Assembly (NCBI GenBank): GCA_016186145.1
Contig: JACPMF010000002.1
Span: 18,473-82,472 of the forward strand
DNA: 64,000 bases
Reading direction: 5' to 3'
DNA from: Candidatus Sungiibacteriota bacterium
GTDB taxonomy: Bacteria > Patescibacteriota > Minisyncoccia > Sungbacterales > SURF-37
Part shown: positions 33,289 through 63,959 of the stretch, one piece after another
How positions within the stretch are numbered: position 1 is the stretch's first letter
Layout of the letters: every line of letters begins with the position of its first letter
Program-made: the position numbers and the translations under genes
The notes under the pieces: generated by a model
Database searches by the model: none
Seen by the model: the letters and a program-made list of their open reading frames with translations, nothing else
Told to the model about the DNA's origin: nothing

Positions 33289-36057
33289 TCAAGAAATCAA
33301 ATAGTTTAAGAGCCTCTCAATGTTTTGTTCTATCCCAAACTTTTCATTGTCAATTTTAATATCCGGACTGGTTGGAGCCTCGTATGGATTTGTTGCGGCA
33401 ACGCCGATAAAATTCGATATCTCCCCGGCAAGGGCTTTCTTGTAAAGTCCCTTGGGGTCGCGCTCAATGCACTTCTCAAGTGAAGCGTTCACATACAACT
33501 CCAAAAATCCACCACCAATGATTGTTCGCGCCATTGCCCGATCTTCCCGATACGGCGATATTATCGGGACAAGTACAAAGTCATGCTCCCCTGCCCTCTC
33601 TCGTGCAAGTTCGGCAATCAAACGGTTATTCTCGCGTATGTCTTCGCGCGAAAAACTGAGGTGTTTGTTCTGGCCGCTTCTTATGGCATCCCCGTCAAGA
33701 ACGCACACGCTTTTCCCGCGCGACTCAAGTTCATTTTTTAATTTTTCAGCGATAGTTGATTTGCCGGACCCGGAAAGCCCCGTGAACCAAATAACGGTCC
33801 CTTTCCGATTTTCATTTTTGACAAAAACTTCCTCCCGACCGCTCACCGCTTCAGCGATGATTTCTGAAATCTCCGGCCTCATAAACCACTCGGGCGGACG
33901 TTCGCCCAGTTCAAATATTTTCCGAGCCTCGGTGCCGCTTATGGAAAGCTTGTCTGACGGGTCATGTTCCGGGCTTTCTGAAGCATGCATGTGATCTCCG
34001 GTTTTCTTTGAATAAAATACTTCCCCGAACCTTATCGGTTTAATTTTCAAATCAGGAAATTCATCAAAAATTTTATGCGATGCGTCGGCAGGGTAAAAAT
34101 TACCGACACCCGTATGATCCCGCCCTACGACAAAATGGCTGCACCCGAAATTCTGCCTGCAAATTGCGGTAAAAAGCGCCTCGCGAGGACCGGCATATCT
34201 TGAATACGTGTTAAAGGTCGCGAATACAACCTTATTTTCCGGATAAATATCATTCATCATCCGTTGATAACTTTTAATAATATATGCGGCATGGTAATCT
34301 CCCGCCTTTTTCTTACCAACCACCGGATGCACAAAAAGCCCGTCGCAATTCTCCTCTTCCAGGGCTTTTAGCTGAATATATTCATGGCTTCTATGAATTA
34401 CATTCCGCGTATGGAAGCCAACGACTCGCGACCAGTGCTTTTCCGCGAAAAGCCGGCGGACCTGGCGTGGCGCCAACGCATAATCCGAAAACTCCGCCCT
34501 TCTGCGGCGAAACAAATCGATTTTTCCGCCCACCAATATCGGGAGCATCGCCATAACCTGTTTTACGCCCGGATGACTCTCATCCAATGTGCCGTAAAGG
34601 CGCTTGGCAAAAAGTTCTTTATCAAACGCGTATATCTCATCAACACGCAAAACGGCAAAAGCGTTTCCTTGTTTGTCCGCAAGTACTACTTCGCGCCCCG
34701 GAATTAGTTTTCTCGCGGCTTCTTCAGAAACGTCTAAAACAATCGGAAGGGGCCAAATCGTTCCGTTCGCAAGACGCATCGTTTCGAGAACGCTCTCACA
34801 ATCTTTTTTTCCCATAAATCCTTCGAGCGGGCTGAACGTTCCAAACGCAATCTGTTCCGCGTCCATCTGCCGCGTTTCGTCGACTAAAATCTTCGGTACG
34901 GTTTCAAGAAACTTTTGCGCCGGCGGTTTTAACAAAATTCTTTCTACCAAGGATCCGCCATGAGGCGGTACAAGAACCGACCCGTAATCGCCCGAGAACA
35001 AATAACCGTCTTTTTCAAGGTGATTTGCAAGCTCAACCGCGGCGAGTTGGTATTCCCGACGGCTTGGGAGAGAAACGGCCTCTCCAACAAGCTTCTGCAT
35101 CATAGAAACGCATTCGAACGGGTACTTCCCTATCGCCGTCTCGGCCGAAAGGGCGACCCCGGCAGCCCCATCCAAAATCGTTGCAATAACATCGTGCGCC
35201 TCCGCCCGCGTTGGCCTTTGTTTTTCCACCATTGTTTCTAAAAGGTTTGTTGCGACAAAAACCGGTTTTCCGTGTTGGTGCGCGTGAGACATAATGATTT
35301 TCTGGGCAAATGGGATTTTCTCAATCGGTATTTCTTTTGAAAGATCGCCGCGATCAATAAGAAGCGCATCGGATTTTTGAATTATTTCGTCAAGGTTTTT
35401 CAAACCATCAACGCATTCGATCTTTGAAATAATTTTCATCCTCCCTTTTGTGGCATCCCGAACCGTGTCGACAAAATCCCCGGAACGCATAAAAGAAGCG
35501 GCAATATATCCGACACCTTCTTGCAGGCCGATCGCAATCGACTGGTAATCTTTTTCCGATAGCGGAGGCAGATCATATGCCTTCGGCATCGCTGAATCAA
35601 TAATTACAGCTTTGTTATTTCCGATACGGCCGGCACTCATCGCTTTTGCGAGAACAAAACCGTCTCCCGCATGGCTTGTATCTGCGACACGAAGAATCAA
35701 AGACTCAAAATCTATATGCAGCATATCCCCGGGCTCGAGCTGGCTTACAATATGCGAAGGGCGAAGAGAGATATTCTGTTGGTCGCCGACAATGTCTGCG
35801 GCATGAATACGCACCTCTTCGTCCTCAGAGAACATGATGGAATTCCCAGAAAGGCGGCCTGAACGGATCTGAGAACCTTCGGTATCGACAATAAATGGAA
35901 TGCCGATTTTTTTTGCAAGCGCGATAAAATAGCGTAGATCATCTACGCTTGAGTGAGACATGTTGATGCGAACGAAATCAACGCCTTTGGCCTTGAGTCT
36001 TCGAAGGCCTGCTTCGGTACGGACGGAAGGACCGAGGGTTACAATGAGTTTAACCAT
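33289..36057 (-). CDS. Tri-domain fusion: pyruvate-kinase-like barrel + sulfate adenylyltransferase (ATP sulfurylase) + adenylylsulfate kinase
   Basis: N-terminal pyruvate-kinase-like region: LIVTLGPS, DTEGSQIRSG, LIDRGDLSKEIP, ILDGAAGVALSAETAIGKYP. Middle ATP-sulfurylase region: HTRN, GRDHTG. C-terminal APS kinase: GLSGSGKST, LDGDAIR. Start at ATG 36057 (MVKLIV). Confidence 0.8.
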   Translation of the reverse strand: MVKLIVTLGPSVRTEAGLRRLKAKGVDFVRINMSHSSVDDLRYFIALAKKIGIPFIVDTEGSQIRSGRLSGNSIMFSEDEEVRIHAADIVGDQQNISLRPSHIVSQLEPGDMLHIDFESLILRVADTSHAGDGFVLAKAMSAGRIGNNKAVIIDSAMPKAYDLPPLSEKDYQSIAIGLQEGVGYIAASFMRSGDFVDTVRDATKGRMKIISKIECVDGLKNLDEIIQKSDALLIDRGDLSKEIPIEKIPFAQKIIMSHAHQHGKPVFVATNLLETMVEKQRPTRAEAHDVIATILDGAAGVALSAETAIGKYPFECVSMMQKLVGEAVSLPSRREYQLAAVELANHLEKDGYLFSGDYGSVLVPPHGGSLVERILLKPPAQKFLETVPKILVDETRQMDAEQIAFGTFSPLEGFMGKKDCESVLETMRLANGTIWPLPIVLDVSEEAARKLIPGREVVLADKQGNAFAVLRVDEIYAFDKELFAKRLYGTLDESHPGVKQVMAMLPILVGGKIDLFRRRRAEFSDYALAPRQVRRLFAEKHWSRVVGFHTRNVIHRSHEYIQLKALEEENCDGLFVHPVVGKKKAGDYHAAYIIKSYQRMMNDIYPENKVVFATFNTYSRYAGPREALFTAICRQNFGCSHFVVGRDHTGVGNFYPADASHKIFDEFPDLKIKPIRFGEVFYSKKTGDHMHASESPEHDPSDKLSISGTEARKIFELGERPPEWFMRPEISEIIAEAVSGREEVFVKNENRKGTVIWFTGLSGSGKSTIAEKLKNELESRGKSVCVLDGDAIRSGQNKHLSFSREDIRENNRLIAELARERAGEHDFVLVPIISPYREDRAMARTIIGGGFLELYVNASLEKCIERDPKGLYKKALAGEISNFIGVAATNPYEAPTSPDIKIDNEKFGIEQNIERLLNYLIS

Positions 36058-36063
36058 GATGAA

Positions 36064-36162
36064 TAATGCTGAATTATAAATGCTGAATTCTGAATAATAC
36101 GATAAAGTCATCTGCTACCAACATCGTTCAATAATTAGCATTTGGCATTCAGCATTTAGCAT
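36064..36162. repeat. Empty inverted-repeat pair of the ATGCTGAAT family
   Basis: aATGCTGAATtataaATGCTGAATtctgaat ... 45-bp spacer ... agcatttggcATTCAGCATttagcatt. No cargo ORF. The right arm encodes the C-terminus of the upstream methyltransferase. Confidence 0.5.
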
Positions 36163-37012
36163 TAAGTATGACTGTGAGCATCTTATCTTTAGGCTCCGAA
36201 ACCCTTTTATACGTCAGTCCAAGTCTTTGCGCCAAAAATTGCAAACTGGCATGGGAAAAAATGTACGGGTGATACGGATTCATTTGATCAAAAACAAGCA
36301 AATTCGGCGTCTGAATATAAATAATACCGCTCTTCAGAAGACATTCTTTTGCAAACCTAACTATGCTTACCGGGTCAATGGTATTTTCCAGAGAATGCGA
36401 AAAGACAATCGCGTCAAATTTCTCGCCCCGTTTGCCGATATTTTCCAGGTCTTCCGCATAACTTCCCAGAAGTTCAATGTTAAAGTCCTTAATGGTTTTT
36501 TGAGCTTCATCAGACGGCTCTACGGCAAAAACTTTGCACTGGTATTTTTTTTTAAATTCCGAAAGTGTTACGCCAAAACCGCAACCAACCTCTAAAACGC
36601 GAGAGTCCGCGCCAAGACTAATCGCGCTTGCAACAACCGGAATTATTGTTTTCGCCCTCTGCTCGCGATGTTTTTCCAGGCGATTTTCTAAACCCTCCTT
36701 GGGATCCCACTTCTTTTCATCATCCCACTTGTATTTCCCCGATTGCCACATCTGGCCTTCTTTATGGAAGCCGGCATTTCTTATTTTTTGCTGCCAGAAC
36801 AAATTCTTATAAAAATCCTTGTATGATTCCCTGGTCGGCCGCGGATTCATAAACTTCAAACCGCACGCGGGACAAAAAACATACCAAAAATCAACCCCGA
36901 ACCATTCAATCTTTCCATTGGGAACCATCGCTGCCCCATCGCAAAAAGGGCACGCGTCCAATGCCTCGAAATCAAAAGTGGCACTTTGATAATTATCCTC
37001 ATTCCTGTTCAT
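36149..37012 (-). CDS. Class I SAM-dependent methyltransferase with N-terminal zinc ribbon
   Basis: CPFCDG...CPACG ribbon; VLEVGCGFG motif I. Probable start at ATG 37012 (MNRNED). Confidence 0.65.
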   Translation of the reverse strand: MNRNEDNYQSATFDFEALDACPFCDGAAMVPNGKIEWFGVDFWYVFCPACGLKFMNPRPTRESYKDFYKNLFWQQKIRNAGFHKEGQMWQSGKYKWDDEKKWDPKEGLENRLEKHREQRAKTIIPVVASAISLGADSRVLEVGCGFGVTLSEFKKKYQCKVFAVEPSDEAQKTIKDFNIELLGSYAEDLENIGKRGEKFDAIVFSHSLENTIDPVSIVRFAKECLLKSGIIYIQTPNLLVFDQMNPYHPYIFSHASLQFLAQRLGLTYKRVSEPKDKMLTVILNAKC

Positions 37013-37922
37013 ATTTGTTCCTGATATCAAACCTTTCAACAATTTTTTTCCGATAATCGAGAGCCATCCGGTCAACTTCGTCTGCCAAGTCCTCGCTTAA
37101 GTGATTTTTCCAGTCGCCGACAACTCCTTTTCGAAATCCGCTTTTAACATTTTCTTCCCCCCGTCCCCTGCCGGCGGAATGGCTGTCCCGCGCAGTCTGT
37201 TTTTCGAATGACGCTTCTTCAATCATATACGCCAGAATCTTGGGTGAAATCGGCATGCCTAAATAGCGAACCATATCGCCTACCACACCGTATGTATACT
37301 CATCAAGCGCCTCATAAGTTAAACAGTGAACCGGACCTTGATACGCAAGGAGCGCTTGGTATTCGGGTATTATCCGCTCCTCCAGGTAACCAATGGCAAA
37401 CTCACGATCGATAACCGCATCTTCCTTTCTGCCCTTTCGAAGCATGTTAAAATGCCACGATACAATTTTATCTTTAGGATCTCTTAAAATACAGAGCTTC
37501 TTTATCTCCGGATAAAGCGAATCAATAAAATCAAGATGAAAAACATACGCCGGCGTTGCCTCACCCACAATTTTTTTGTCGCCTCTCTGCATATCGCAAA
37601 TCTCGCCGTAGCGTTCTTGAAATATCCGATATACCTCTGTTTTTGGCAGCTCATCTTTAAAGTGCACCAAATCAGAAAATACCTTGTTGTACTTTACCGC
37701 AAAATCGGAAAACGGCCGAACAAACTTCCTTTCGTCCCCACCCTCTAAACTCGCGAGGGTATTGAAGAAATGCATCTCGCCGACTCGCTGCTCCCCAATT
37801 TCGTTATAAAAGGGAAGCGTGGGAAAGCATGCAATGTCCGGATGATTGTCTAAAAGCGCTGCAACCCAATGAGTGCCGCTCCGCTCCATACCAACTATTA
37901 AAAAGTCTGGACGATAATGCAT
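36999..37922 (-). CDS. PAPS-dependent sulfotransferase
   Basis: Predicted 5'-phosphosulfate-binding loop GMERSGTHW and 3'-phosphate-binding RDPKDKIVSW. Confidence 0.7.
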   Translation of the reverse strand: MHYRPDFLIVGMERSGTHWVAALLDNHPDIACFPTLPFYNEIGEQRVGEMHFFNTLASLEGGDERKFVRPFSDFAVKYNKVFSDLVHFKDELPKTEVYRIFQERYGEICDMQRGDKKIVGEATPAYVFHLDFIDSLYPEIKKLCILRDPKDKIVSWHFNMLRKGRKEDAVIDREFAIGYLEERIIPEYQALLAYQGPVHCLTYEALDEYTYGVVGDMVRYLGMPISPKILAYMIEEASFEKQTARDSHSAGRGRGEENVKSGFRKGVVGDWKNHLSEDLADEVDRMALDYRKKIVERFDIRNKYEQE

Positions 37923-43735: not shown

Positions 43736-44415
43736 GGTTCAATAAGCCCTTCCCAAATTATATGGGTATTTATTTTTGATTGGCCGGCTCTGCGTTCCGT
43801 AAAAACAATTGGGATTTCCTTTATACGCGCGCTACGGCGGTAAAACATTGTCCGAAGCGTAAACCACCAGGCATAACCGGACGGTTTTATTTTTTCGAAA
43901 GGCACCATCTTAAGAAAGTCGGTTCTCATACAGGAAAAACCGGCAGTACAATCCCGAATCGGCAGCCCGGTAATAAACCGCACGTATATATTCCCACCCC
44001 AAGAAAGAATCCTTCGCCATAACTCCCAATTCTCGATCCCGCCACCCTGCATATACCGCGACCCGATAACAAGATCACGGTTCTCTGCCGCCCCAACCAA
44101 TGCAGGAATGTACTTTGGATTGTGTGAAAAATCAGCATCAATAGTAACAACACAGTCATCACCCTCTTCGCTTAAAACCTTCCGGAACGCCGTTTGATAA
44201 GCCGACCCCATGCCAAGCTTTTCCGAACGCGTCATGACCGACACGCGCGAATCCTTTGCGGCATATTCGCGCACCAAACCGGCGGTGCCATCAGGAGACC
44301 CATCGTCAATCACCAAAATTCTTGTGTCCTCGGGCATATACCGAAAAATTTCCGTAATAAGCAAAACGATGTTCTCCCGTTCGTTGTAGGTTGGGATAAT
44401 AATACGCGCTTTCAT
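43708..44415 (-). CDS. GT2 polyprenol-phosphate sugar synthase (Dpm1/ArnC-like)
   Basis: IIIPTYNEREN, VIDDGSPDGT, and SRVSVMTR motifs of dolichol-phosphate mannosyltransferase-like GT2 enzymes. Confidence 0.75.
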   Translation of the reverse strand: MKARIIIPTYNERENIVLLITEIFRYMPEDTRILVIDDGSPDGTAGLVREYAAKDSRVSVMTRSEKLGMGSAYQTAFRKVLSEEGDDCVVTIDADFSHNPKYIPALVGAAENRDLVIGSRYMQGGGIENWELWRRILSWGGNIYVRFITGLPIRDCTAGFSCMRTDFLKMVPFEKIKPSGYAWWFTLRTMFYRRSARIKEIPIVFTERRAGQSKINTHIIWEGLIEPWRIRFSKL

Positions 44416-44430
44416 GAAAAAAAATAGAAA

Positions 44431-45549
44431 CTAGGAAAATAGTGCAATAAACTTCGGCAAGACCTTATTAAGATCGTACTTTTTAACCCACCCCTTTTCT
44501 TCTTCCGAAGTGCGGCGCATATCAGAAGTCGGCTCGGTAAGCAACTCAACAATTTTTGCCGCAAATCCGTTAATATCCCCGCTCCTGACAATATATTTCT
44601 GAAGTATTGGTGGCGTTATCTCTCCTACTCCGCCAACGTTGCTTGCAACATACGGAACGCCTGCGGCCATTGCCTCCAAAAGAACATGCGGGAATCCTTC
44701 TTCCTCGGACGGCATAAAGAAAACATCGGCAGCCGCAAAATAATTTTCAATTTCCGCATTAGGAACACTCCCGATTAAACGAACAAATCGTCCCAACCCT
44801 TGGTTTTTAACTTCCAACCTTAACCTTTCAAGCTCCGGGCCGTCGCCAACAATAACAAATATAACATTTTTAGACTGCCCTGTAACCGATTTAACGACGG
44901 GCACGATCACATGCGCCCCCTTCCTCCGCGACAGACGGTGCACAAAAAGAACTATTTTCCTATTACTGTCCACTCCGAATCTTTTCTTCGCAGAGCCACG
45001 ATCATGACCATTATCAAAACGAAGTATTTTAATCCAATTCGGCAGGATAATTATACGCTTTCGATCCAGGCGATAACGGCGGCCGTATTCTGATGCGATA
45101 CCGGCCGTTCCGGTAACTAAAATGTTGTGCCGCATTGCAAACCGAAATACGGTTTCCTCAAAAAATGAACGGCGATAAAGCCATGGCGCCCCGCAATTCC
45201 AATAATACGAAACGCCGCCAAAAAATGCCGTAACAAACCACGACGCCAATGCTCCATAAAACGAATAATGCGTGTAAAAATATCTTCTGCCCCTCATACG
45301 CTCGCGCATCAAAATAAAAAGAAGTTCTCCAAATCGTAGCGGCGGAAACGAAAACCTCTGACAATAAAAACGAAAAGGCGCATTACCAGGCAATAATTTT
45401 GCTTTTTCAATAACTAAAAAAATATCCAGATTCTCTCGCGCGCGCTCCAATAATTGATACAAATTAAAAAAATGGCTGCCGGTGGCAGGATCATACATCG
45501 GAAGAATATAGCAAATACCGGGTCTATGATTTTCAACCATCTGCAACAA
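44431..45549 (-). CDS. Glycosyltransferase family 4
   Basis: EEGFPHVLLEAMAAGVPYVAS motif. Confidence 0.8.
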   Translation of the reverse strand: MLQMVENHRPGICYILPMYDPATGSHFFNLYQLLERARENLDIFLVIEKAKLLPGNAPFRFYCQRFSFPPLRFGELLFILMRERMRGRRYFYTHYSFYGALASWFVTAFFGGVSYYWNCGAPWLYRRSFFEETVFRFAMRHNILVTGTAGIASEYGRRYRLDRKRIIILPNWIKILRFDNGHDRGSAKKRFGVDSNRKIVLFVHRLSRRKGAHVIVPVVKSVTGQSKNVIFVIVGDGPELERLRLEVKNQGLGRFVRLIGSVPNAEIENYFAAADVFFMPSEEEGFPHVLLEAMAAGVPYVASNVGGVGEITPPILQKYIVRSGDINGFAAKIVELLTEPTSDMRRTSEEEKGWVKKYDLNKVLPKFIALFS

Positions 45550-45684
45550 ATAATACCCAAAAGAGCCTGATAAAGTTGCTTTTTAACTATCCCATGACCC
45601 ATGACACTTTTACGCTTTATTGACTTCCACGCACAGATCAGTTAACTTCATTATAGAACTTTCGAATTCCATAGGGGGGCTGTC

Positions 45685-45903
45685 ATGCTGACAAACCGCG
45701 AAGTGGTTAAGCGTATCAATCGTTGGGCTAAGAAGCCGAGGGCCAGGGTGCCTGTTTGCGGTCATAACGAATCACATGGTCGATTAAAGGCCATCATCCT
45801 TAAGGACGGGGGACTTGGTAGCGAAGTTGTGATGTCCTGCACTCAATGTGATTTCAAAGAATTCGCTGAATTGCCCAATACCGCCTATCAGAAAGTTGCT
45901 TAG
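45685..45903 (+). CDS. Small hypothetical protein with Cys/His zinc-ribbon-like pairs
   Basis: 72 aa; VCGHNESHG and CTQCDF motifs. Preceded by a G6 Shine-Dalgarno (45674-45679). Confidence 0.45.
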   Translation: MLTNREVVKRINRWAKKPRARVPVCGHNESHGRLKAIILKDGGLGSEVVMSCTQCDFKEFAELPNTAYQKVA

Positions 45904-45913
45904 CTCTCGTCAC

Positions 45914-45937
45914 GGACCCGCAATGTCGGGTCCTTTT
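45914..45937 (+). terminator. Intrinsic terminator
   Basis: ggacccg-caatgt-cgggtcc followed by tttt. Confidence 0.55.
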
Positions 45938-45961
45938 CATATCCCTACGCCCCATGACATC

Positions 45962-45990
45962 TCTGTTATTTCAACGGTGTCCCGTGGTGA
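45962..45990. repeat. Conserved 29-bp upstream element, copy 1
   Basis: tctgttatttcaacggtgtcccgtggtga, followed by TTGACT and a ttccattctact box. Repeated at 46316-46344 with 1 mismatch. Confidence 0.6.
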
Positions 45991-46056
45991 CTCTTGACTT
46001 TTCCATTCTACTGGATGATATTAGTATCAGTACATTTAACCAACGGGGAGGTTGTC

Positions 46057-46278
46057 ATGGAAACATTTAAGGGATTACTGCTACTTATCGTTTTATCTGT
46101 TGCAGTCGGTCTTGCGACGTGGTGGGCATCCCCTTTTGATGGCTTCTGGCTTCCTCGTTTTGTTCTCTTCCTGTTTTTCGAGGCATCCGTGGTTATGAGT
46201 ATATTCGGTGCCCTCGCCCTAATTGCTATGCCCTTTGCCTTAATGCTCGGAGCTGTCCCCGAAAATAAATCGCGATAA
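46057..46278 (+). CDS. Small two-TM membrane protein
   Basis: 73 aa. GGGGAGG Shine-Dalgarno (46045-46051), 5-nt spacer, ATG at 46057. Confidence 0.5.
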   Translation: METFKGLLLLIVLSVAVGLATWWASPFDGFWLPRFVLFLFFEASVVMSIFGALALIAMPFALMLGAVPENKSR

Positions 46279-46315
46279 TCGCCCAGTGCCATGGCTCTCT
46301 ACGACCCGTGGCATT

Positions 46316-46344
46316 TCTGTTACTTCAACGGTGTCCCGTGGTGA
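46316..46344. repeat. Conserved 29-bp upstream element, copy 2
   Basis: tctgttacttcaacggtgtcccgtggtga, followed by a tcccattcgact box. Confidence 0.6.
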
Positions 46345-46417
46345 TTATTGCGGTTATCTTCCCATTCGACTATCCTTAAGATAAATCAGTTCTTTGCTTT
46401 TCGTGGGGGGGGTTACC

Positions 46418-46633
46418 ATGGGCAGATATTGGGTTTGGATGGCCTTATCTTTGGCCCTTGTTGGTCTGTTCTTCGGGATTCTTGGTGCCTATAAAATGGT
46501 TACTTCGCAAAATTTCCAAAGCTTGTGGTATATGATCTTTGGCATTGCCATCCTTTGTACAAATTTGATTTGGATAAAGAGAATGTGTAAGAAATATCCT
46601 CCGTCAACCACTACAAAACACGTCATCTTCTAA
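46418..46633 (+). CDS. Small two-TM membrane protein
   Basis: 71 aa. Preceded by a G8 homopolymer (46405-46412) acting as the Shine-Dalgarno. Confidence 0.5.
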   Translation: MGRYWVWMALSLALVGLFFGILGAYKMVTSQNFQSLWYMIFGIAILCTNLIWIKRMCKKYPPSTTTKHVIF

Positions 46634-46727
46634 TATCCTTCCATTCAATGAGCCGTTCCTACGGCTCTTTATCTTTGCCTCTACGAACCATGACACTTTT
46701 TATACTTCAGCAATGTCATAACAATAC

Positions 46728-47390
46728 CTAACTTCTGCGCACCTCTTCCAATCGCGCCTCTGTTCCAGCATCCTGCCAAAAACCGTTATGCAAAAAAACG
46801 TGGAGACTTCCAGATTCCGCAAGACGAGGAAATACGTCTTTTTCGATCATAAATGTTTTTTCCATAATTCCCTCAAAATGTTTTGGATGTAAAATGTAAC
46901 AACCGGCATTGATATATCCCGGCTTCAACTCGGCCGGTTTTTCTAAAAATGCTTTTATGCGACCGTCTTTGATTTCCAAAAGTCCGAAATCGCGCGCATC
47001 TTCGCGCCACGCGCCAACTATACATGGCATTCCCGGCTTATGCGTTTTTAAAAGCGACGTAAAATCAATATCGTTCATCACATCTCCGTTCAAAACCATA
47101 AAATCCTCGCCGATATCGCTTGTGGCAAACTTAACAGCACCCCCCGTCCCGAGCGGCTCCGGTTCAACAACATGTTCAATATAACCCTTGCCGTTGTCGG
47201 TCAGATGCGCAATTATTTGATCCGCCCGGAAACCCAAAGACAGCCGTATATCTTTAAGACCGTGCTTCTCAAGGCCCTCAACGATGTGATCAAGCATCGC
47301 CTTGCCGCGAATCTTAACAAGCGCTTTCGGAATATCTTTTGCCGAATTCGGAAGACGCGTTCCCTTGCCTCCGGCAAGTATTATGACCTT
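46728..47390 (-). CDS. Sugar-phosphate nucleotidyltransferase (NTP_transferase family)
   Basis: MKVIILAGGKGTRLP...KAL motif. ATG at 47390. Confidence 0.75.
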   Translation of the reverse strand, partial: KVIILAGGKGTRLPNSAKDIPKALVKIRGKAMLDHIVEGLEKHGLKDIRLSLGFRADQIIAHLTDNGKGYIEHVVEPEPLGTGGAVKFATSDIGEDFMVLNGDVMNDIDFTSLLKTHKPGMPCIVGAWREDARDFGLLEIKDGRIKAFLEKPAELKPGYINAGCYILHPKHFEGIMEKTFMIEKDVFPRLAESGSLHVFLHNGFWQDAGTEARLEEVRRS

Positions 47391-47392
47391 CA

Positions 47393-47687
47393 TCCCACAC
47401 ATAACTAATGCGTAAAACTATTGCGAAGTCTTTCCTTGAGCCTCCGCAGTCCCTGCGCATGTAGCTTTAAAGATTTCTCCCGATTATATGCATCTATTTT
47501 TGAAGAGTATGCCTCAAAATATACAAGGCGCCATGGAGCATACTTTTTGGTGTGGTATGAAAAACCACTATTATGCCACGAAAGTCGTTTCTGCAAATTA
47601 GAAGTACATCCTATATACAAACTGCGATTTTTCTTAGATTGTAAGAGATATACACAATAAAGCATAGCGCATTAGTTATGTGTGGGA
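47393..47687. mobile_element. TIR-bounded mini-element carrying a GIY-YIG nuclease gene (cccacacataact family)
   Basis: Perfect 19-20-bp TIRs: tcccacacataactaatgcg (47393-47412) and cgcattagttatgtgtggga (47668-47687). Flanked by ttcat on both sides. Confidence 0.6.
47405..47665 (-). CDS. GIY-YIG nuclease family protein (YhbQ-like)
   Basis: MLYCVYLLQS...LYIGCTSNLQKRLSWHN. Confidence 0.8.
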   Translation of the reverse strand: MLYCVYLLQSKKNRSLYIGCTSNLQKRLSWHNSGFSYHTKKYAPWRLVYFEAYSSKIDAYNREKSLKLHAQGLRRLKERLRNSFTH

Positions 47688-47741
47688 TTCATAAACAAAA
47701 GAAGTGATACTTCTGTCTATTCCGTAATACCCTCAAAAGCA

Positions 47742-48908
47742 TCACAAAGTACTCAAACGGCCGATAATGCGTTCGGTCCGTTTTTTCCACGTATGATCTC
47801 CGGCTATTTCCAGCGCGCGGACGGCGCGCCTTCTTGACTCCGTGCGATCAGTAACCGCCCGATTTATGCCTTCCGCCAATGCTTCGGCGTTTTCCGGCTC
47901 AACCAAAAACGCCGAAGCATCGTCAATAATTTCCCTTATAGAATTCAAATCAGAAGCGACAATCGGCACGCCGCTTGCCATGTATTCAAAAATCTTCATC
48001 GGCGACATGTAAAAATTATAATGATCGTTTTTAGGAAACGGCGATATCAAAACATCGCACATTTTCAGATACTGGGGAACGCTGGAATGTTTAACCCAAC
48101 CGGTAAAAATAAGCTTCCGCTCTATGCCCATACCGGACGCCATTCTTTTATAATAGTCCGCATCTTCTTTACTTCCTCCGATTATAAGGGCCTTAAAATC
48201 GGGGCCAAGCAACTTCATAGCGCTAAACAGAGTTCCAACACCCTTTTCCATGTCCATAGTCCGCAACGAACCTGCGTAGCCGATCAAAAAGGTCTCCTCC
48301 GGAATATCGTAAGATTTTCTTAACAATACGCCATTGCCGGCCCCTGAAAAAGATTCAACATCAACAGCGTTTGGCTCATAGAAAAGCCTCTCTGCGGGCA
48401 CATCAAACAATTCGGCAATGCGCCCCTGTTTCCACCGGTTTGTAACAACCGCAAAACGGACGCGCCTGAAAAGCGTTTTATAAAATCTTGTATTACGAGG
48501 GAAATCATGCACTTCGTAAACAGTGTTTGGGAACCTCAACGAGGCAAAAAGAAGCGGCAACGCCTCATTTGAATACACGACAGCATCTTTTTTTGCAAAA
48601 AACAAAAGATACAGCAAAACCATTTTTGAAAACACGATATAACTTGCCGCAAAAGCCAGCCGCTTAAAAAAAGGCAGAAAAAGTAAGTCAATGGTCGGAA
48701 GATAAACAACCTTAAAATTATTTTTTACACCGTAAAATTCCGCAGGAGTGTTTCTTGATCTGCCGAGACGCCTCGGCGCGAGAAAAGTAACGGACACGCC
48801 AGCATCGGCAAACGCCTCCGCATTTTTTGCGGCAAAAACTGCCGCCGCTTTCTCGCCGGGAAATCTGCCGTGAAATATCAAAAATAGCTCTTTATGCACT
48901 GGCCTCAT
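47742..48908 (-). CDS. Glycosyltransferase family 4
   Basis: KIFEYMASGVPIVASDL motif. Confidence 0.8.
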   Translation of the reverse strand: MRPVHKELFLIFHGRFPGEKAAAVFAAKNAEAFADAGVSVTFLAPRRLGRSRNTPAEFYGVKNNFKVVYLPTIDLLFLPFFKRLAFAASYIVFSKMVLLYLLFFAKKDAVVYSNEALPLLFASLRFPNTVYEVHDFPRNTRFYKTLFRRVRFAVVTNRWKQGRIAELFDVPAERLFYEPNAVDVESFSGAGNGVLLRKSYDIPEETFLIGYAGSLRTMDMEKGVGTLFSAMKLLGPDFKALIIGGSKEDADYYKRMASGMGIERKLIFTGWVKHSSVPQYLKMCDVLISPFPKNDHYNFYMSPMKIFEYMASGVPIVASDLNSIREIIDDASAFLVEPENAEALAEGINRAVTDRTESRRRAVRALEIAGDHTWKKRTERIIGRLSTL

Positions 48909-50133: not shown

Positions 50134-50565
50134 ATGCCTTACGAAGATGTGCCCTTTAAAAACAGTGATGAACTTATGCAAATCTATCGTGAGGTCATAC
50201 GGAATAAATTCATTGAAGTTAATGGCTTATTCTGGCCTATTTCGGCTCTTGTTACACCGACTAGCAACGGTCGCCACATAACTACTGACTTCGAAGCATT
50301 CGATGGATTCATGAGGGGCCTTCGGGCTGCGTGGATTCAGATTGTAAGTGAGGAAGAAACATTGGACCCGGAACCCGGCATAGAGAAGCTCCGAAAGGCC
50401 ACATTTATTGCTACGCCACCACGTCGAGAACCGCAGCGAATGGTTGTTGAGGAGTATGTAGCGATAGATGACAAAAACCCCATTGGTGTTAGCCGCGTCG
50501 ACATCGCAGTATATTCTGAAGGCAAAAGACCGGATCTTGAAAACCGACGCCGCATCGAACTGTAG
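50134..50565 (+). CDS. Hypothetical small protein, paralog A
   Basis: 143 aa. GGAGG Shine-Dalgarno. Shares FEAFDGFMRGLRA and VVEEYVAIDD...GVSRVDIAVY blocks with the next ORF. Confidence 0.55.
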   Translation: MPYEDVPFKNSDELMQIYREVIRNKFIEVNGLFWPISALVTPTSNGRHITTDFEAFDGFMRGLRAAWIQIVSEEETLDPEPGIEKLRKATFIATPPRREPQRMVVEEYVAIDDKNPIGVSRVDIAVYSEGKRPDLENRRRIEL

Positions 50566-50599
50566 CGCAGTCCAACCAACAAACCGAAAGGAGATGCCA

Positions 50600-50935
50600 A
50601 TGTCCTACAACCATACGACGGTTGAATTCGAGGCGTTCGACGCCTTCATCATGGCCCTCCGGACCTTCGGCATCAGGCCGAAAAAGGTAGAGAACCTCGA
50701 GGTGGCAGAGGGATTTACGGGGCGGAAGTTGCGTCGCACAACTTTCATGGCCCCCCGAAAGCGAAGCACAAGTGGATTCAATGCGAAGCAACTCGGTAAT
50801 ATGCAAATGTTGGTAGTCGAGGAATATCTTGCCGTTGACGACCACGACGACGATGGCATCAGCCGCGTCGCCATCGAGGTCTATCCGTACGGCCACCGAC
50901 CGAACCTTGAAGGTCGGTGCACAATCGCCGACTGA
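50600..50935 (+). CDS. Hypothetical small protein, paralog B
   Basis: 112 aa from ATG 50600. AGGAG Shine-Dalgarno. FEAFDAFIMALRT and VVEEYLAVDD...ISRVAIEVY blocks. Local GC about 57 percent. Confidence 0.55.
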   Translation: MSYNHTTVEFEAFDAFIMALRTFGIRPKKVENLEVAEGFTGRKLRRTTFMAPRKRSTSGFNAKQLGNMQMLVVEEYLAVDDHDDDGISRVAIEVYPYGHRPNLEGRCTIAD

Positions 50936-55950: not shown

Positions 55951-56778
55951 ATGAACACCACAAATATCATGCGACGAGCCATTTTAAAAATGCGAAGAGC
56001 CTGTGGCCTAACAAATGTAACGACCTACTTTGACGGCATCCGCTACCGCTTGGGCCTTAACGAATACATTGATTCTGAAATCTATCTTCAAGGGTTTTTT
56101 GAAGAAGATACTACTTATGCCTTGCGGAAACTTGTCAGGCCGGGTATGACGATTTTTGACATAGGCGCGAATTCCGGATGCCATACCATGCGAATGGCAA
56201 AACTCACAGGTGAGACAGGAACAGTTGTCGCCTTTGAACCCGTGTCGTGGGCACAGGAAAAACTGGAAATAAATATGGCTCTCAATAATTTTGGCAACAT
56301 AGTATTAGAAAAAATGGGGCTTTCGGACAAGCCAGCAAAAAATGTTGAAGTAGAAATTGCGGCAAGCTGGCCGGTACGGACTCATAATGCCCCCCCCCCC
56401 AACCGGCTTCACCCTATTCACAAAGGAAAATTGATTAAAGCGCAAATTGATTTTTCAACAATGGATAACTATGTTAATTCGCGTAAAGTTGAAAAAGTTG
56501 ACCTGATCAAAATAGACACGGACGGTTATGAACTGCGGGTTCTCCACGGAGGCGCGAGAACGTTAAAACAATTCACGCCAATCCTTATCGTGGAGATGGA
56601 CCAGAACACGCTCAAAGAAAAAGGCGATACTCTTAAGGATTTGGTTTCATTTCTTGAAAGGTTTGGGTATAAATTCTACTCTGTTGAAAATGGATTTCGC
56701 AACTTAAACAAAGCAGATATACTCTCTTCAAAACCCGGTAAAACCAGATCGGCAAATATAGTGGCGCTGGCGGGCTAA
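55951..56778 (+). CDS. FkbM family methyltransferase
   Basis: FDIGANSGCHT motif. Contains a C11 homopolymer at 56390-56400 encoding APPPN. Confidence 0.65.
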   Translation: MNTTNIMRRAILKMRRACGLTNVTTYFDGIRYRLGLNEYIDSEIYLQGFFEEDTTYALRKLVRPGMTIFDIGANSGCHTMRMAKLTGETGTVVAFEPVSWAQEKLEINMALNNFGNIVLEKMGLSDKPAKNVEVEIAASWPVRTHNAPPPNRLHPIHKGKLIKAQIDFSTMDNYVNSRKVEKVDLIKIDTDGYELRVLHGGARTLKQFTPILIVEMDQNTLKEKGDTLKDLVSFLERFGYKFYSVENGFRNLNKADILSSKPGKTRSANIVALAG

Positions 56779-61112: not shown

Positions 61113-63959
61113 TTAGAACGAGAACGACTGTGCTGTTGCGCCTGATGACGGAAGACCGGGGACGAGGAAGCCGTTATACCAGTCAGGACCGCCGTCTCCG
61201 GTTGCTCCAGTATGGGTAGAAGTCGAGTTGCCAGACCAAATGAAGTCGTTGCCTGGATACTTAGCATCAAGGTCGTTGTTTCCGTTAGTTCCAGAAACAG
61301 CGGCGCTCATTGTGGTTGACGCGTCTATGACTCCTCCGGGGCGGGCAAACGGATAATCCGCTACGAGAGCATTGGTTGTTCCAGCAGTAAATCCGGTATC
61401 CTGTACGGTCTCGCTGGTTTCACCAATATTTATGTCTACCCATGTCGGGTCGCCCATCAGCTGAACCGTCGCGCTGTCTCCGCTTGAATTTGCTCCAGAC
61501 ACTGTTCCCTTAAGCTCAAAGTAATACGTTGAGCCGGCAGGAATGTGGATGGCTTCCGGATCAGCGCTTGTCGGAGCTGCCGGGTTAAAGTGAATTGCAA
61601 AGTCAGAGGTAGTCGAGCGGTTAAGCGCCGTCTTGTTGCCTTGAACTGTGAAGAGCGTTGTACCGCTGTTCAACTGCCCATCGGCAGAATAGGCGCCGCC
61701 TGAGAAGCCGGAACTGGTGTAGGCGAACAATTTCAAGCTCGTAACGGTTAGGTCGTTTCCTATGCCGGTCGTTGCGATATTGAAGAGGAACTTGTAGAGC
61801 GAAACGCCGTTTGTTCCCGCAGGGGATGCCACCGAGAAGCGATAAAGAACTTTATCGGTCCCGTTGACAAGAGCGTTTGATGGCACGGAAAGCGCGGTAA
61901 GCGTCGGATAGCCGCGTACAACACGAACACCAGCGGATGCGGTACTTGCAGAAGTTGATTCAATGTTCTGCGATGAACCCTGGCCAACTGCATAAGTGTA
62001 ACCAAGACCAGAGCCTCCGTTTGATACCTGCAAGTCAACCGAAACCAAGTGACCCGGCCTGCCCGCCTCGTCAACACCGATAGGCGACAGCAAGCCTTTG
62101 ATCGTCATCAGCTTATCTCCATTCTTCGGAACTACGAAACCATTGACCGTAGTGACAAGACCCGTGTCAGAAGAAGTTGCAGTGATCTCGCCAACCTTTG
62201 TCGCGCCATCCCATAGCGTGATTTTTTGTAGATCAGATGGTGTGTTAGACGCGGTATTGGTGATTTGCAAGAGAATCTGCTTAACGTCCATAGCTTCATT
62301 TGTAGCGGTGAAGCGAAACACAGCAAGATTCACCTCTTCACCGGCTTGCGCCATGCGGACTGCCGGGCTTGAACCGTCAAGCGTAACAGCGAGCGAACCT
62401 GACGCGGCCATGGTCATGATGTTCGTAACGGAAGATGAAGCCACTGAAGCAGTAACACTGTTCCCGGAAGTCATACCGGTCGCGCCAAAGGTCTCGTTGT
62501 TGGAGAAAGACCACATACCTTGTCCGGCATCTCCGGAAGCAAGGGTATCGCACTTCAAAGCAATCGTCTTAATGGTTCCTTTCGGAACAATCAAGGCGTT
62601 GTCAAAAGTGAATGTCTGATCGCCCTCGCCGGTCGCGTTAACAGCATTTGAACCTGTTGTCAATGATACCGTACCGTCATAAAGACTGCAGTTCTTAACC
62701 TCATTGCCGTCAAAACCAAAGAGCTGCGCTTGAGCTGATGTAATGCGAATATCTTCTCCGGAGCCGGTTACGTCAAAGATGAGGTTAGCAAAAGTAAATG
62801 CTGTTGTACCGCGAATTACGGTTTGCGCGGTTGGCGTATTGCCAATGGAAACCGTGAGTGCGGCAGTCTTTACAGTCATCGAGTTACCGGTTACCGTTCC
62901 GACGTTTGCCGGAGTAATGGTTACTCCGGATGTTCTTCCAACACCGGAAGTCCAGTCGGATGAAGGCGTGCTCGATGCCGAAACCAAACGGTTGTTATCA
63001 AAGTCAGTTGAAAGCTTACCTTTCAAGAAGTAAGTCTTCTTGCCAACTGGAAATTCAACCGCATCGGTAAAGGTAATAGTCGCTTCGGCATCAGTAGTAC
63101 CGGAACCATCTTTCGGACCCGCTACTGCATTTCCCGCTTCGTCATAAAGCGTAACGTTCGTGAAGTCAGCTTCGGTAACACTGCTGTCGTTAGCATTCGC
63201 TGAAACCCTGAAGACAATGCTTGAGAATGTAACTGCTTCTCCTTTTACATCAACATCAAACGCACCAAGGGGCTGGTCGTTAAGGTTAACTGCGATATTT
63301 TGCGCAGCGCCTCCGGAAGCGGTCGATTTAGACACCGTAACAGTGCCCTGACCAACCTTCACGGTAAAGCCGCGGAATGCCGGTTCAGTGTCGGACGAAA
63401 GCGCGCCATTCGCAACGCTTCCGGCTGTGGCAGTACCACCTCCCGGTTTAACGCCGAATCCAAACTGTTTGCCTTTTACGTCAAGGTCGGTATCGCGGAA
63501 AAGTTGAAACTCAATATCCCTATTGGTTCCGCCGACAAGATCGCCCTTAACATAAATCTCGGCTTGATTGCCTTTGGTAAGGGTCACGCCGTCTCCAAAT
63601 TTAGCAGTATAATATTTGCCGTCAGAAGAAACGGTAGTTGGATATTCAGTTGTGTCAAGAATAACTTTGACATTACCTAAATCGCCCGCACCGATAGAAC
63701 CGGCTTGATACCAACTAATTGACTTAACGCTGAGATCTTCAGCCGCACCCGCAGTCAAACGAAGGGCTGCGAATTTGTATCCAGTGTCTCCGATATTTTT
63801 CGCGGATGAAGTTGCTGCTGCTCCCGGGTCATTTACACCTCGTGTCAAATCAACCGATCCAATAGTCAGCGTGCTGTTCATCGTGATCTGCGAGCCGCGA
63901 ATCGGAAGCGTTCCGGTCAATGGAGAAGTCGCATCAATTGCGACAACATCAAAGCTCAA
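61113..63959 (-). CDS. Very large Ser/Thr/Gly-rich beta-repeat surface protein (adhesin/S-layer-like), N-terminus beyond window
   Basis: More than 948 aa of low-complexity T/S/G/A/V-rich sequence. The frame continues to the window edge, so the feature is partial. Confidence 0.5.
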   Translation of the reverse strand: MSFDVVAIDATSPLTGTLPIRGSQITMNSTLTIGSVDLTRGVNDPGAAATSSAKNIGDTGYKFAALRLTAGAAEDLSVKSISWYQAGSIGAGDLGNVKVILDTTEYPTTVSSDGKYYTAKFGDGVTLTKGNQAEIYVKGDLVGGTNRDIEFQLFRDTDLDVKGKQFGFGVKPGGGTATAGSVANGALSSDTEPAFRGFTVKVGQGTVTVSKSTASGGAAQNIAVNLNDQPLGAFDVDVKGEAVTFSSIVFRVSANANDSSVTEADFTNVTLYDEAGNAVAGPKDGSGTTDAEATITFTDAVEFPVGKKTYFLKGKLSTDFDNNRLVSASSTPSSDWTSGVGRTSGVTITPANVGTVTGNSMTVKTAALTVSIGNTPTAQTVIRGTTAFTFANLIFDVTGSGEDIRITSAQAQLFGFDGNEVKNCSLYDGTVSLTTGSNAVNATGEGDQTFTFDNALIVPKGTIKTIALKCDTLASGDAGQGMWSFSNNETFGATGMTSGNSVTASVASSSVTNIMTMAASGSLAVTLDGSSPAVRMAQAGEEVNLAVFRFTATNEAMDVKQILLQITNTASNTPSDLQKITLWDGATKVGEITATSSDTGLVTTVNGFVVPKNGDKLMTIKGLLSPIGVDEAGRPGHLVSVDLQVSNGGSGLGYTYAVGQGSSQNIESTSASTASAGVRVVRGYPTLTALSVPSNALVNGTDKVLYRFSVASPAGTNGVSLYKFLFNIATTGIGNDLTVTSLKLFAYTSSGFSGGAYSADGQLNSGTTLFTVQGNKTALNRSTTSDFAIHFNPAAPTSADPEAIHIPAGSTYYFELKGTVSGANSSGDSATVQLMGDPTWVDINIGETSETVQDTGFTAGTTNALVADYPFARPGGVIDASTTMSAAVSGTNGNNDLDAKYPGNDFIWSGNSTSTHTGATGDGGPDWYNGFLVPGLPSSGATAQSFSF

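Follow-up and report, generated by a model that had tools for sequence, protein, structure and literature searches.

A putative cassette array of small genes set between relics of the secA tail, in a glycan cluster of Candidatus Sungiibacteriota

In T4-type phages, small orphan open reading frames (ORFs) flanked by a terminator stem-loop and a sigma-70-like promoter make up promoter early stem-loop (PeSL) cassettes (Arbiol et al. 2010, PMC2839356; Comeau et al. 2014, PMC4122927). The first of these reports describes recombination between conserved non-coding units that inserts, deletes or replaces ORFs among close relatives, with mini-circles as a possibility (PMC2839356). The locus considered here is an island of three small ORFs (g1, g2 and g3) in a 64,000-nt stretch of DNA from a Candidatus Sungiibacteriota bacterium (assembly GCA_016186145.1, contig JACPMF010000002.1). 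We call the whole stretch the window, and all coordinates are window positions unless a related locus is named. The ORFs lie in a row at ~45590-46727, all on the + strand, and the island appears functionally closest to the PeSL regulatory cassettes. We think it rather probable that it is an array of three autonomous single-gene cassettes, bounded by relics of the secA tail and assembled by recombination at the secA tail, which is now ectopic in a glycan cluster.

The resemblance to PeSL cassettes lies in breakpoints that fall in the terminator/promoter interval and in promoters and ORFs that are reassorted between relatives. It also lies in the predicted terminator stem-loop and promoter-like boxes between small ORFs, with a covarying hairpin after g1 and boxes that are conserved across loci. 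The island differs in its place in a bacterial (Patescibacteria-like) chromosome among glycan genes, rather than in the hyperplastic region of a T4-type phage, and in having no viral matches. In addition, the unit that its cassettes have in common includes the remains of the end of a host gene, namely SEC-C codons from secA, and the arrays are anchored at one chromosomal site.

Integrons likewise hold single small ORFs in one orientation with repeated sites between them. In the island the sites measure ~50 nt and number n+1 for n cassettes (three ORFs and four sites, all on the + strand). Each site is apparently a hybrid of two cassette ends, the newest cassette apparently lies next to the insertion point, and cassette content differs between relatives. 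In contrast to integrons, no gene for the tyrosine recombinase IntI was found near the array, among the ORFs scanned with Pfam, or in the related loci, and the sites show no attC-type symmetry or fold (z of about -1.1 for copy 1 of the repeat). The cassettes of the island also have promoter-like regions and terminators of their own, and the insertion point is in coding sequence, the secA tail, rather than in an attI site.

Integrative elements and cis-mobilizable elements (CIMEs) accrete in tandem at the 3' ends of conserved genes (review, PMC5704250). Here, too, the 3' end of a target gene is duplicated as direct repeats (the antisense SEC-C end in the island, a 154-bp duplication in the related locus L011), the gene is kept intact by a replacement end from the element, recombinase-less units lie between att-like repeats, and the cargo in relatives includes toxin-antitoxin genes. 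However, the units are 0.35-0.8 kb long with one or two genes, rather than several kb, no integrase was seen in the available loci, and secA is not adjacent in the window. The island departs on a defining point from PeSL cassettes, integrons and accretions of integrative elements alike.

The pdif (XerC/D) modules of Acinetobacter plasmids are small and recombinase-less, with short conserved sites in both orientations, and are presumably moved by host enzymes. The units described here are likewise small, recombinase-less and bounded by short sites in both orientations, but inspection by eye revealed no obvious dif-like arrangement of two 11-nt arms and a 6-nt spacer, and the context is chromosomal. 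We found nothing relevant in the literature on secA as an integration site or on integrons in Patescibacteria, and to our knowledge secA is not a described integration target.

The repeated site and its relation to secA

A preliminary description of the island reported a motif (CCATGACA) at three places and, before g2 and before g3, a 29-bp element with an additional box. The motif is present at all three places, and a fourth copy (CCCGTGGCAT, 46305-46314), which that account had missed, stands before g3. The 29-bp element is indeed found at 45962-45990 and 46316-46344, with 28 of 29 positions identical and the one difference at its Y position; shuffled sequence would be expected to yield no such match. 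The additional box (ttccattctact / tcccattcgact) is found too, with one extra mismatch in its second copy.

Searched with the pattern CTACGNCCCRTGRCAY, the window yields four matches (45592, 45945, 46299 and 46681) against 0.34 expected. All of them are in the island, where one motif copy stands on either side of every gene, giving n+1 copies for n genes. When the 64 kb are searched with an nhmmer profile of the copies in other genomes, made without any window sequence, these same four sites come out (E values from 2e-5 to 5e-4), and the next match has an E value of 0.67. The four window copies are all direct, with no inverted partner, and the units measured from core to core are 353, 354 and 382 nt long. 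A function of the motif as a DNA-uptake sequence was considered and rejected, the motif being confined to the island.

The motif is the reverse complement of the secA 3' end that encodes the SEC-C zinc motif, i.e., it is antisense to the Cys-His-Gly codons. In six-frame scans of related loci (designated by L numbers) it is antisense to intact SEC-C secA ends in L005, L013, L015, L022 and L025/26, and in the same loci a g1 homologue lies tail-to-tail with secA, with two other genes between them in L013. An intact secA is adjacent in L005, L013, L015, L022 and L025, but not in the window. With the Pfam SEC-C model, which has a gathering threshold of 20.4 bits, true secA tails reach 41.6-46 bits and the variant tail of L022 reaches 23.3. 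The sequence that leads from the 3' end of g1 through its stop codon, a hairpin and a T-run into CCTCAYGNCCCATGRCAY is collinear in eight loci, of which three have a true or intact tail (L025, L015 and L010) and five, including the window, have a remnant. In L025, the closest relative of the window, 87% identity over 298 nt extends from g1 into a real secA stop codon.

Relic copy 0 (45590-45637, +; nhmmer E 5.8e-5) has the core CCCATGACAC at 45598-45607, antisense to C-H-G-S, and the -35 box of the putative g1 promoter falls within the inner part of this copy; the same module stands 5' of g1 in L005, L010 and L015. Relic copy 1 (45943-45997, +; E 1.9e-5) has the core CCCATGACAT at 45951-45960, antisense to R-C-H-G-A-stop, and includes the first 29-bp element. 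The second element is included in relic copy 2 (46297-46351, +; E 5.1e-4), whose core CCCGTGGCAT is antisense to K-C-H-G-S-stop with both core changes synonymous. Relic copy 3 (46679-46726, +; E 4.4e-5; core ACCATGACAC at 46687-46696, antisense to …LLKYKKCHGS-stop) abuts the stop codon (46728) of the gene for a nucleotidyltransferase of the nucleoside triphosphate (NTP)-transferase type, and no + strand gene follows it. The sole Pfam match of its antisense translation is SEC-C, at a sub-threshold 13.4 bits against 20.4 and over the C-H half only; by hand count, the copy agrees with the tail-like end of L024 at 28 of 33 nt. None of the copies in the window is a functional SEC-C (PF02810) domain, all of them being relics.

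The 29-bp element is part of a 55-nt repeat, 85% identical between copies 1 and 2, which in turn lies within ~125 nt of homology upstream of g2 and g3 that is 71% identical and stops at the start codon. The differences between the two copies are concentrated in the 20 nt nearest the stop codon. Because copy 1, the element included, aligns ungapped with the true tail of L025 (32 of 47 nt identical, hand count), we read the 29-bp element as the decayed Cys-x-Cys half of the SEC-C motif. The four window cores vary only at positions 1, 4, 7 and 10, the antisense third-codon positions of Gly, His, Cys and Lys/Arg, and the chance that four variable sites of ten fall on exactly these positions is 1/210. 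In six lineages, moreover, every positional relic retains x-C-H-G-x-stop. Such a codon-structured pattern would be expected if a cassette end has to be capable of completing secA. Taken at the level of these alignments, the repeat originates from secA. On both strands the fold of copy 1 is no more stable than that of shuffled sequence (z of -1.1 and -1.2); only copy 2 is structured, with a fold that is idiosyncratic.

The linkage of g1 to secA is not constant. A rule that g1 is always linked to secA was rejected, as g1 lies between tRNA synthetase genes in L006 and beside a HicB-like antitoxin gene in L030; in L020 it is found beside a different convergent gene, RuvB-like by eye. A suspected relic of a g1 3' end to the left of copy 0 (45560-45590) was also dropped, since it consists of one exact 10-mer, for which the chance is ~1 per 1.5 kb. 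In L010 (903-1144), secA ends in a variant SEC-C (CPCGAKKADGTLYKYKHCG…, stop at 1034), and a second, intact SEC-C motif (903-950), which lies after the secA stop and out of frame, resembles a displaced former tail.

Cassette boundaries and reassortment among relatives

Every gene of the island forms a unit in which the small ORF is preceded by a promoter-like region and a Shine-Dalgarno sequence and followed by a terminator, and the modular island with a homologous region upstream of g2 and g3 that the preliminary description had outlined is upheld. Of 15 pairs of loci in which at least one partner has no downstream secA, 14 have homology across g1 that ends between -7 and +12 nt from the core's 3' edge (a manual tally of alignment ends).

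Upstream of the genes, the modules are found in different combinations. Three different modules precede g1: a direct relic with TTGACT-N17-TAnnnT (type 1; window, L005, L006, L010 and L015), an inverted relic with TTGCAT-N17-TATATT (type 2; L016, L017, L021, L025 and L027), and the 29-bp type (type 3; L022). The type 1 module, that of copy 0, also precedes an unrelated 54-aa gene in L024. The 29-bp module precedes g1 in L022, g2 in L024 and the window, and g3 in the window. In all of these places the GGTGTCCCKTG part of the element is kept, and the element may have a promoter-proximal role.

Two natural polymorphisms testify to the gain of cassettes at this site. In the independent assemblies L011 and L019 there is, by comparison with L010, an insertion of 816 bp, which contains a 41-aa ORF, a UPF0150 (HicB-type) antitoxin gene and an internal tail relic and is bounded by 154-bp direct repeats of the secA 3' end that are 97% identical. 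L021 and L023 are 99.6% identical up to the core and unrelated beyond it. At the level of sequence comparison, the cores lie at cassette boundaries, cassettes and promoters have been swapped between genomes, and both an insertion and a replacement can be followed between relatives.

In the order of cassettes, g1 is usually the farthest from secA, with others in between (L005, L011 and L013). In L024, g2 abuts the tail-like end WKKYKKCHGA-stop, and in the window g3 lies beyond g2. Promoter function does not require the core, which is degraded in L015 and lost in L006 while both loci retain their -35 and -10 boxes. In the window (46687), L027 and L016, one copy of the motif stands after the last gene, where no further gene lies downstream. 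Beside secA in L005 (738-4064), between two relic cores at 1271 and 4330, there are toxin-antitoxin genes (ParE and two PhdYeFM) and genes for a MerR/HTH_17 protein and a PRiA4_ORF3 protein. Given this gene content, larger multi-gene units can sit between cores.

Proposed assembly at the secA tail and other explanations

Under the reading that we favour, a cassette would extend from one 10-nt core (CCCATGACAY) to the next and carry a promoter-like region, a Shine-Dalgarno sequence, an ORF of ~72 codons and a terminator, while core and flanks would be antisense remnants of the last secA codons, those of the SEC-C zinc motif. Arrays would grow at the secA 3' end in related Patescibacteria, where an incoming cassette would recombine into the SEC-C codons and its distal end (…K-C-H-G-x-stop) would restore the secA reading frame. 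The displaced proximal half of SEC-C would stay behind, and either decay or be reused as promoter-upstream sequence, e.g., as the 29-bp element. Each site would then be a hybrid. Its half nearest the stop codon would come from the upstream cassette and have to be capable of completing secA whenever that cassette is adjacent to secA, whereas its second half would come from the downstream cassette and could decay or be reused without constraint. Core-core recombination between arrays would shuffle promoters and ORFs, and an array with the last secA-tail remnant would have moved between a GT4 glycosyltransferase gene and the nucleotidyltransferase gene.

In this scheme we infer, rather than observe, a circular intermediate, the enzyme at work (a recombinase acting in trans, or homologous recombination of RecA type), the move of the array to its present site, its promoters and whatever role it has in the cell. 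Insertion could be site-specific, or it could be a homology-driven, Campbell-type insertion of circles from relatives. A wider and more doubtful proposal, which we put forward only tentatively, is that Patescibacteria possess an integron-like platform for cassette acquisition, not described before, with its attachment site in the secA SEC-C codons and a 10-nt core. Each cassette would supply the last five secA codons and be moved by a trans-acting enzyme or by the competence/RecA machinery, and the array of the window would have escaped to a second site.

Patescibacteria (the Candidate Phyla Radiation, CPR) have tiny genomes with few recognised mobile elements, and the gain and loss of their accessory genes is poorly understood. 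If assembly at the secA tail is true, a recombination hotspot at the end of a gene that is both essential and universally conserved would offer a concrete route of gene flux in reduced genomes. The logic of the site would be unlike that of integrons and phage PeSLs, in that the cassette end doubles as the last secA codons. The island would also illustrate how coding sequence, once displaced, can find a new use in promoters and terminators, and the core could serve as a simple marker for finding small, otherwise invisible genes such as g3, which a gene caller missed.

Several observations weigh against assembly at the secA tail. Neither an integrase nor a transposase nor another recombinase was found beside any array or within ~10 kb in the window, where most of the large ORFs up to ~10 kb to the left and right of the island were scanned with Pfam; these scans yield only glycan-pathway genes and a GIY-YIG domain. 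We infer the relocation of the array, and call the array ectopic, because secA is absent from the 64-kb window: no SecA domain occurs in any ORF scanned, and a six-frame scan of the window gives no SEC-C tail besides the relic. A look-up of contigs with the exact NTP-transferase sequence returned the same contigs only, and no allele with an empty junction between the GT4 and NTP-transferase genes. Copies 0 and 2 match the true tail convincingly over ~20 nt only, g3 has no homologue that we could find, and the promoters of g1-g3 are predictions at the level of consensus sequences. The comparison set comprises about 12 lineages, mostly on short metagenomic contigs. The repeat of L011 is long (154 bp) with junctions unlike the core-type breaks, and there may be more than one mechanism, including plain homologous recombination. 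Finally, the scheme does not account for the inverted relic copies of relatives, nor for a unit of ~115 nt there that resembles a miniature inverted-repeat transposable element (MITE), with a direct and an inverted secA-tail relic as its ends (CCCATGACAC…AAAATGTCATGGGG).

The preliminary description regarded the repeat as a regulatory element, and it could indeed be a cis-regulatory site, e.g., one bound by g1, that coordinates the small genes, its likeness to secA being historical only. The repeat lies just upstream of -35 boxes, GGTGTCCCKTG is conserved 5' of g1 and g2 in the distinct lineages of L022 and L024, and g1, which accompanies the motif in most loci, would by its sequence be a basic protein of zinc-binding type. 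An operator is harder to reconcile with copies that follow the last gene with nothing downstream, with spacings to the -35 box of 12, 33 or 9 nt in both orientations, and with a core whose variation tracks codon positions in the antisense frame. Because the core decays where the promoter is kept (L006 and L015), control of the module by g1 is less likely; moreover, no g1 is visible in the 929-nt contig L024, which carries g2. We therefore regard an operator as an unlikely explanation, and see the repeat as a decayed antisense secA 3' end that marks cassette boundaries across genomes. Local tandem duplication of a promoter-gene-terminator unit, followed by divergence of the coding part and without mobility, would explain the similar unit lengths and why g2 and g3 both encode membrane proteins of ~72 aa behind a homologous 125-nt leader. 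Yet the proteins of g2 and g3 have no detectable similarity while the non-coding repeat upstream is 85% identical, the reverse of what duplication followed by divergence would leave. In addition, g1 is unrelated to both, the same boundaries part unrelated genes elsewhere, and cassettes differ between near-identical strains. The simple duplicated module proposed earlier is not sustained by these observations, and we hold tandem duplication to be quite improbable.

The repeats could also be remnants of MITEs or insertion sequences (IS) whose terminal repeats match or target the secA end, with the window copies as solo ends. For this speaks the ~115-nt unit with inverted ends (CCCCATGACAYTTT…AAAATGTCATGGGG), which is present in several genomes (L005 4682-4797; L021 466-578 and 1194-1306; L027 5-80; L017 ~4872-4945) with 76-83% identity between genomes and occurs twice in L021, its inverted end 9 nt 5' of the -35 box. 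But the four window copies are all direct, inverted pairs being found in relatives only, no target-site duplications or transposase were seen, and the ends run collinear with true secA coding sequence and pass gradually into it. We give this origin little credence. Least of all do we expect a phase-variable small-gene locus, in which slippage in the G6-G8 tracts toggles translation; the preliminary description had pointed out that slippage in the G8 tract would alter the spacing of the ribosome-binding site. G8 and G6 tracts do stand at Shine-Dalgarno positions; however, they are not conserved, relatives have GGAG-type sequences instead, and the lengths are the same in four consensus assemblies. 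A run of 5-9 G would, by reasoning rather than computation, still pair with the anti-Shine-Dalgarno sequence.

Genes, signals and surroundings of the island

The three + strand genes of 72, 73 and 71 aa, with a G-rich run before each, are all present as first described, and the island sequence is the same as that of the window in four of four independent Logan assemblies. The first gene, g1 (45685-45903, +; 72 aa), encodes a basic protein with a Cys/His zinc ribbon of the form C-x-H-x3-H … C-x2-C, with the residues Cys25/His27/His31/Cys52/Cys55. Its homologues (n=10, 46-85% identity) have invariant Cys and His residues and come from contigs of groundwater metagenomes, two of which are named Patescibacteria metagenome-assembled genomes (MAGs), one of them Candidatus Harrisonbacteria. 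The family is tiny, with only 12 matching clusters among 1.84 billion representatives. An AlphaFold2 model of g1 (predicted local distance difference test, pLDDT, of 72) has an N-terminal helix and a beta-hairpin, and a Foldseek comparison of it with PDB folds gave no match. As a guess at its role, g1 is probably a small protein that binds zinc and nucleic acid.

The putative g1 promoter (45620-45648, +) consists of a -35 box TTGACT at 45620-45625, a 17-nt spacer and a -10 box TAACTT at 45643-45648, followed by the conserved CATTATAGAACTTT. In a consensus-level reading, TTGAC(T/A)-N17-TAnnnT is held in six loci (window, L005, L006, L010, L015 and L024). The Shine-Dalgarno sequence of g1 is the G6 run at 45674-45679 (+), in the place of which relatives carry AAGGAG, GGAGG or similar. 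Its predicted intrinsic terminator (45914-45937, +) has a GC-rich stem of 7 bp with TTTT after it. In eight loci all seven pairs of the stem are kept (100% pairing), two of them through compensatory changes on both sides.

Upstream of g2, a putative promoter at 45994-46022 (+) has TTGACT, a 17-nt spacer and GATATT, and a homologous region precedes the g2 homologue in L024. The Shine-Dalgarno sequence GGGGAGG (46046-46052, +), which corresponds to AAGGAG in L024, leads into g2 itself (46057-46278, +), a 73-aa hydrophobic membrane protein by hydropathy. Its single homologue, P0013 in L024, is 71% identical, has the same upstream module and gives a ratio of nonsynonymous to synonymous substitution rates (dN/dS) of 0.24; for g1 the ratio is 0.07-0.22. 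On account of these values (0.07-0.24 for the two together) g1 and g2 are, by comparative evidence, real genes under purifying selection. A structured stretch at 46268-46355 (+) spans the end of g2 and relic copy 2. Its RNA has a fold of -40.9 kcal/mol (z = -7.3), which G-U pairs make specific to the + strand. In it an outer 16-bp stem, which pairs the last g2 codons with bases just past the 29-bp element, surrounds an inner hairpin (46285-46315) whose 3' arm is formed by the relic core; a U-rich run comes directly after this hairpin. The inner hairpin is likely the g2 terminator, and the fold as a whole may act as a g2 terminator or as an RNA stability element.

The putative g3 promoter (46348-46382, +) is weak, with TTATCT or TTGCGG as -35 box and TAAGAT as -10 box; a consensus scan missed it, and its placement follows from the alignment with the g2 promoter region. 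The Shine-Dalgarno sequence of g3 is the G8 run at 46405-46412 (+), and g3 (46418-46633, +) is a 71-aa orphan with two hydrophobic segments that was not called as a gene in the Logan contigs. The reality of g3 is suggested by the module architecture alone, i.e., the promoter-like region, the Shine-Dalgarno sequence and a predicted terminator at 46650-46676 (+), where a 7-bp stem is followed by TTTATCTTT (z = -3.7 for the region). Our guess is that g2 and g3 are small membrane proteins.

Searches of g1-g3 against Pfam, PHROGs, PADLOC, NCBIfam and the sequences of the PDB gave nothing significant, in agreement with the original view that none of the three belongs to a known family. A phage-derived module and a role in toxicity or immunity, both raised in that account, are not borne out: viral contigs contained no match for g1 or for the motif, PHROGs returned none for g1 and g2 and a best match for g3 at E 0.009, which is not significant, and no known toxin, antitoxin or defence family in Pfam, PADLOC or NCBIfam matched g1-g3. 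An Rfam scan of 44000-48500 was also without a match.

The lengths of the G-tracts agree in the four assemblies at the consensus level; phase variation finds no support at that level. Elsewhere in the window, G6-G7 runs occur just 5' of ATG or GTG triplets, which were not checked as gene starts. A C11 homopolymer (56390-56400) in a + strand ORF for an FkbM-type methyltransferase (55951-56778) is a candidate tract for slipped-strand phase variation in a glycan-modifying gene.

The island is bordered on the left by the GT4 glycosyltransferase gene (44431-45549) and on the right by the nucleotidyltransferase gene (46728-47402), both on the minus strand. Between the latter and the next GT4 gene, 0.7 kb from the island, there is a stand-alone gene for an 86-aa GIY-YIG nuclease domain (47405-47665, -). 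The 64-kb window contains an extensive glycan cluster, which encodes glycosyltransferases of the GT2 and GT4 types, Wzy and flippase-type proteins, a sulfotransferase and a fusion of ATP-sulfurylase and APS (adenosine 5'-phosphosulfate) kinase. The fusion (33289-36111, -; 940 aa) joins a pyruvate-kinase barrel, a PUA-like domain, ATP-sulfurylase and APS kinase, and it adjoins the sulfotransferase gene (36999-37922, -), which suggests the synthesis of a sulfated glycan. A GC-rich patch at 50134-50935 (0.51-0.56 against ~0.45 around it), between minus-strand glycosyltransferase genes, has overlapping + strand ORFs of 143 and 155 aa without a Pfam match and may be another small insertion. A 948-aa ORF at 61113-63959 (-) likewise has no Pfam match.

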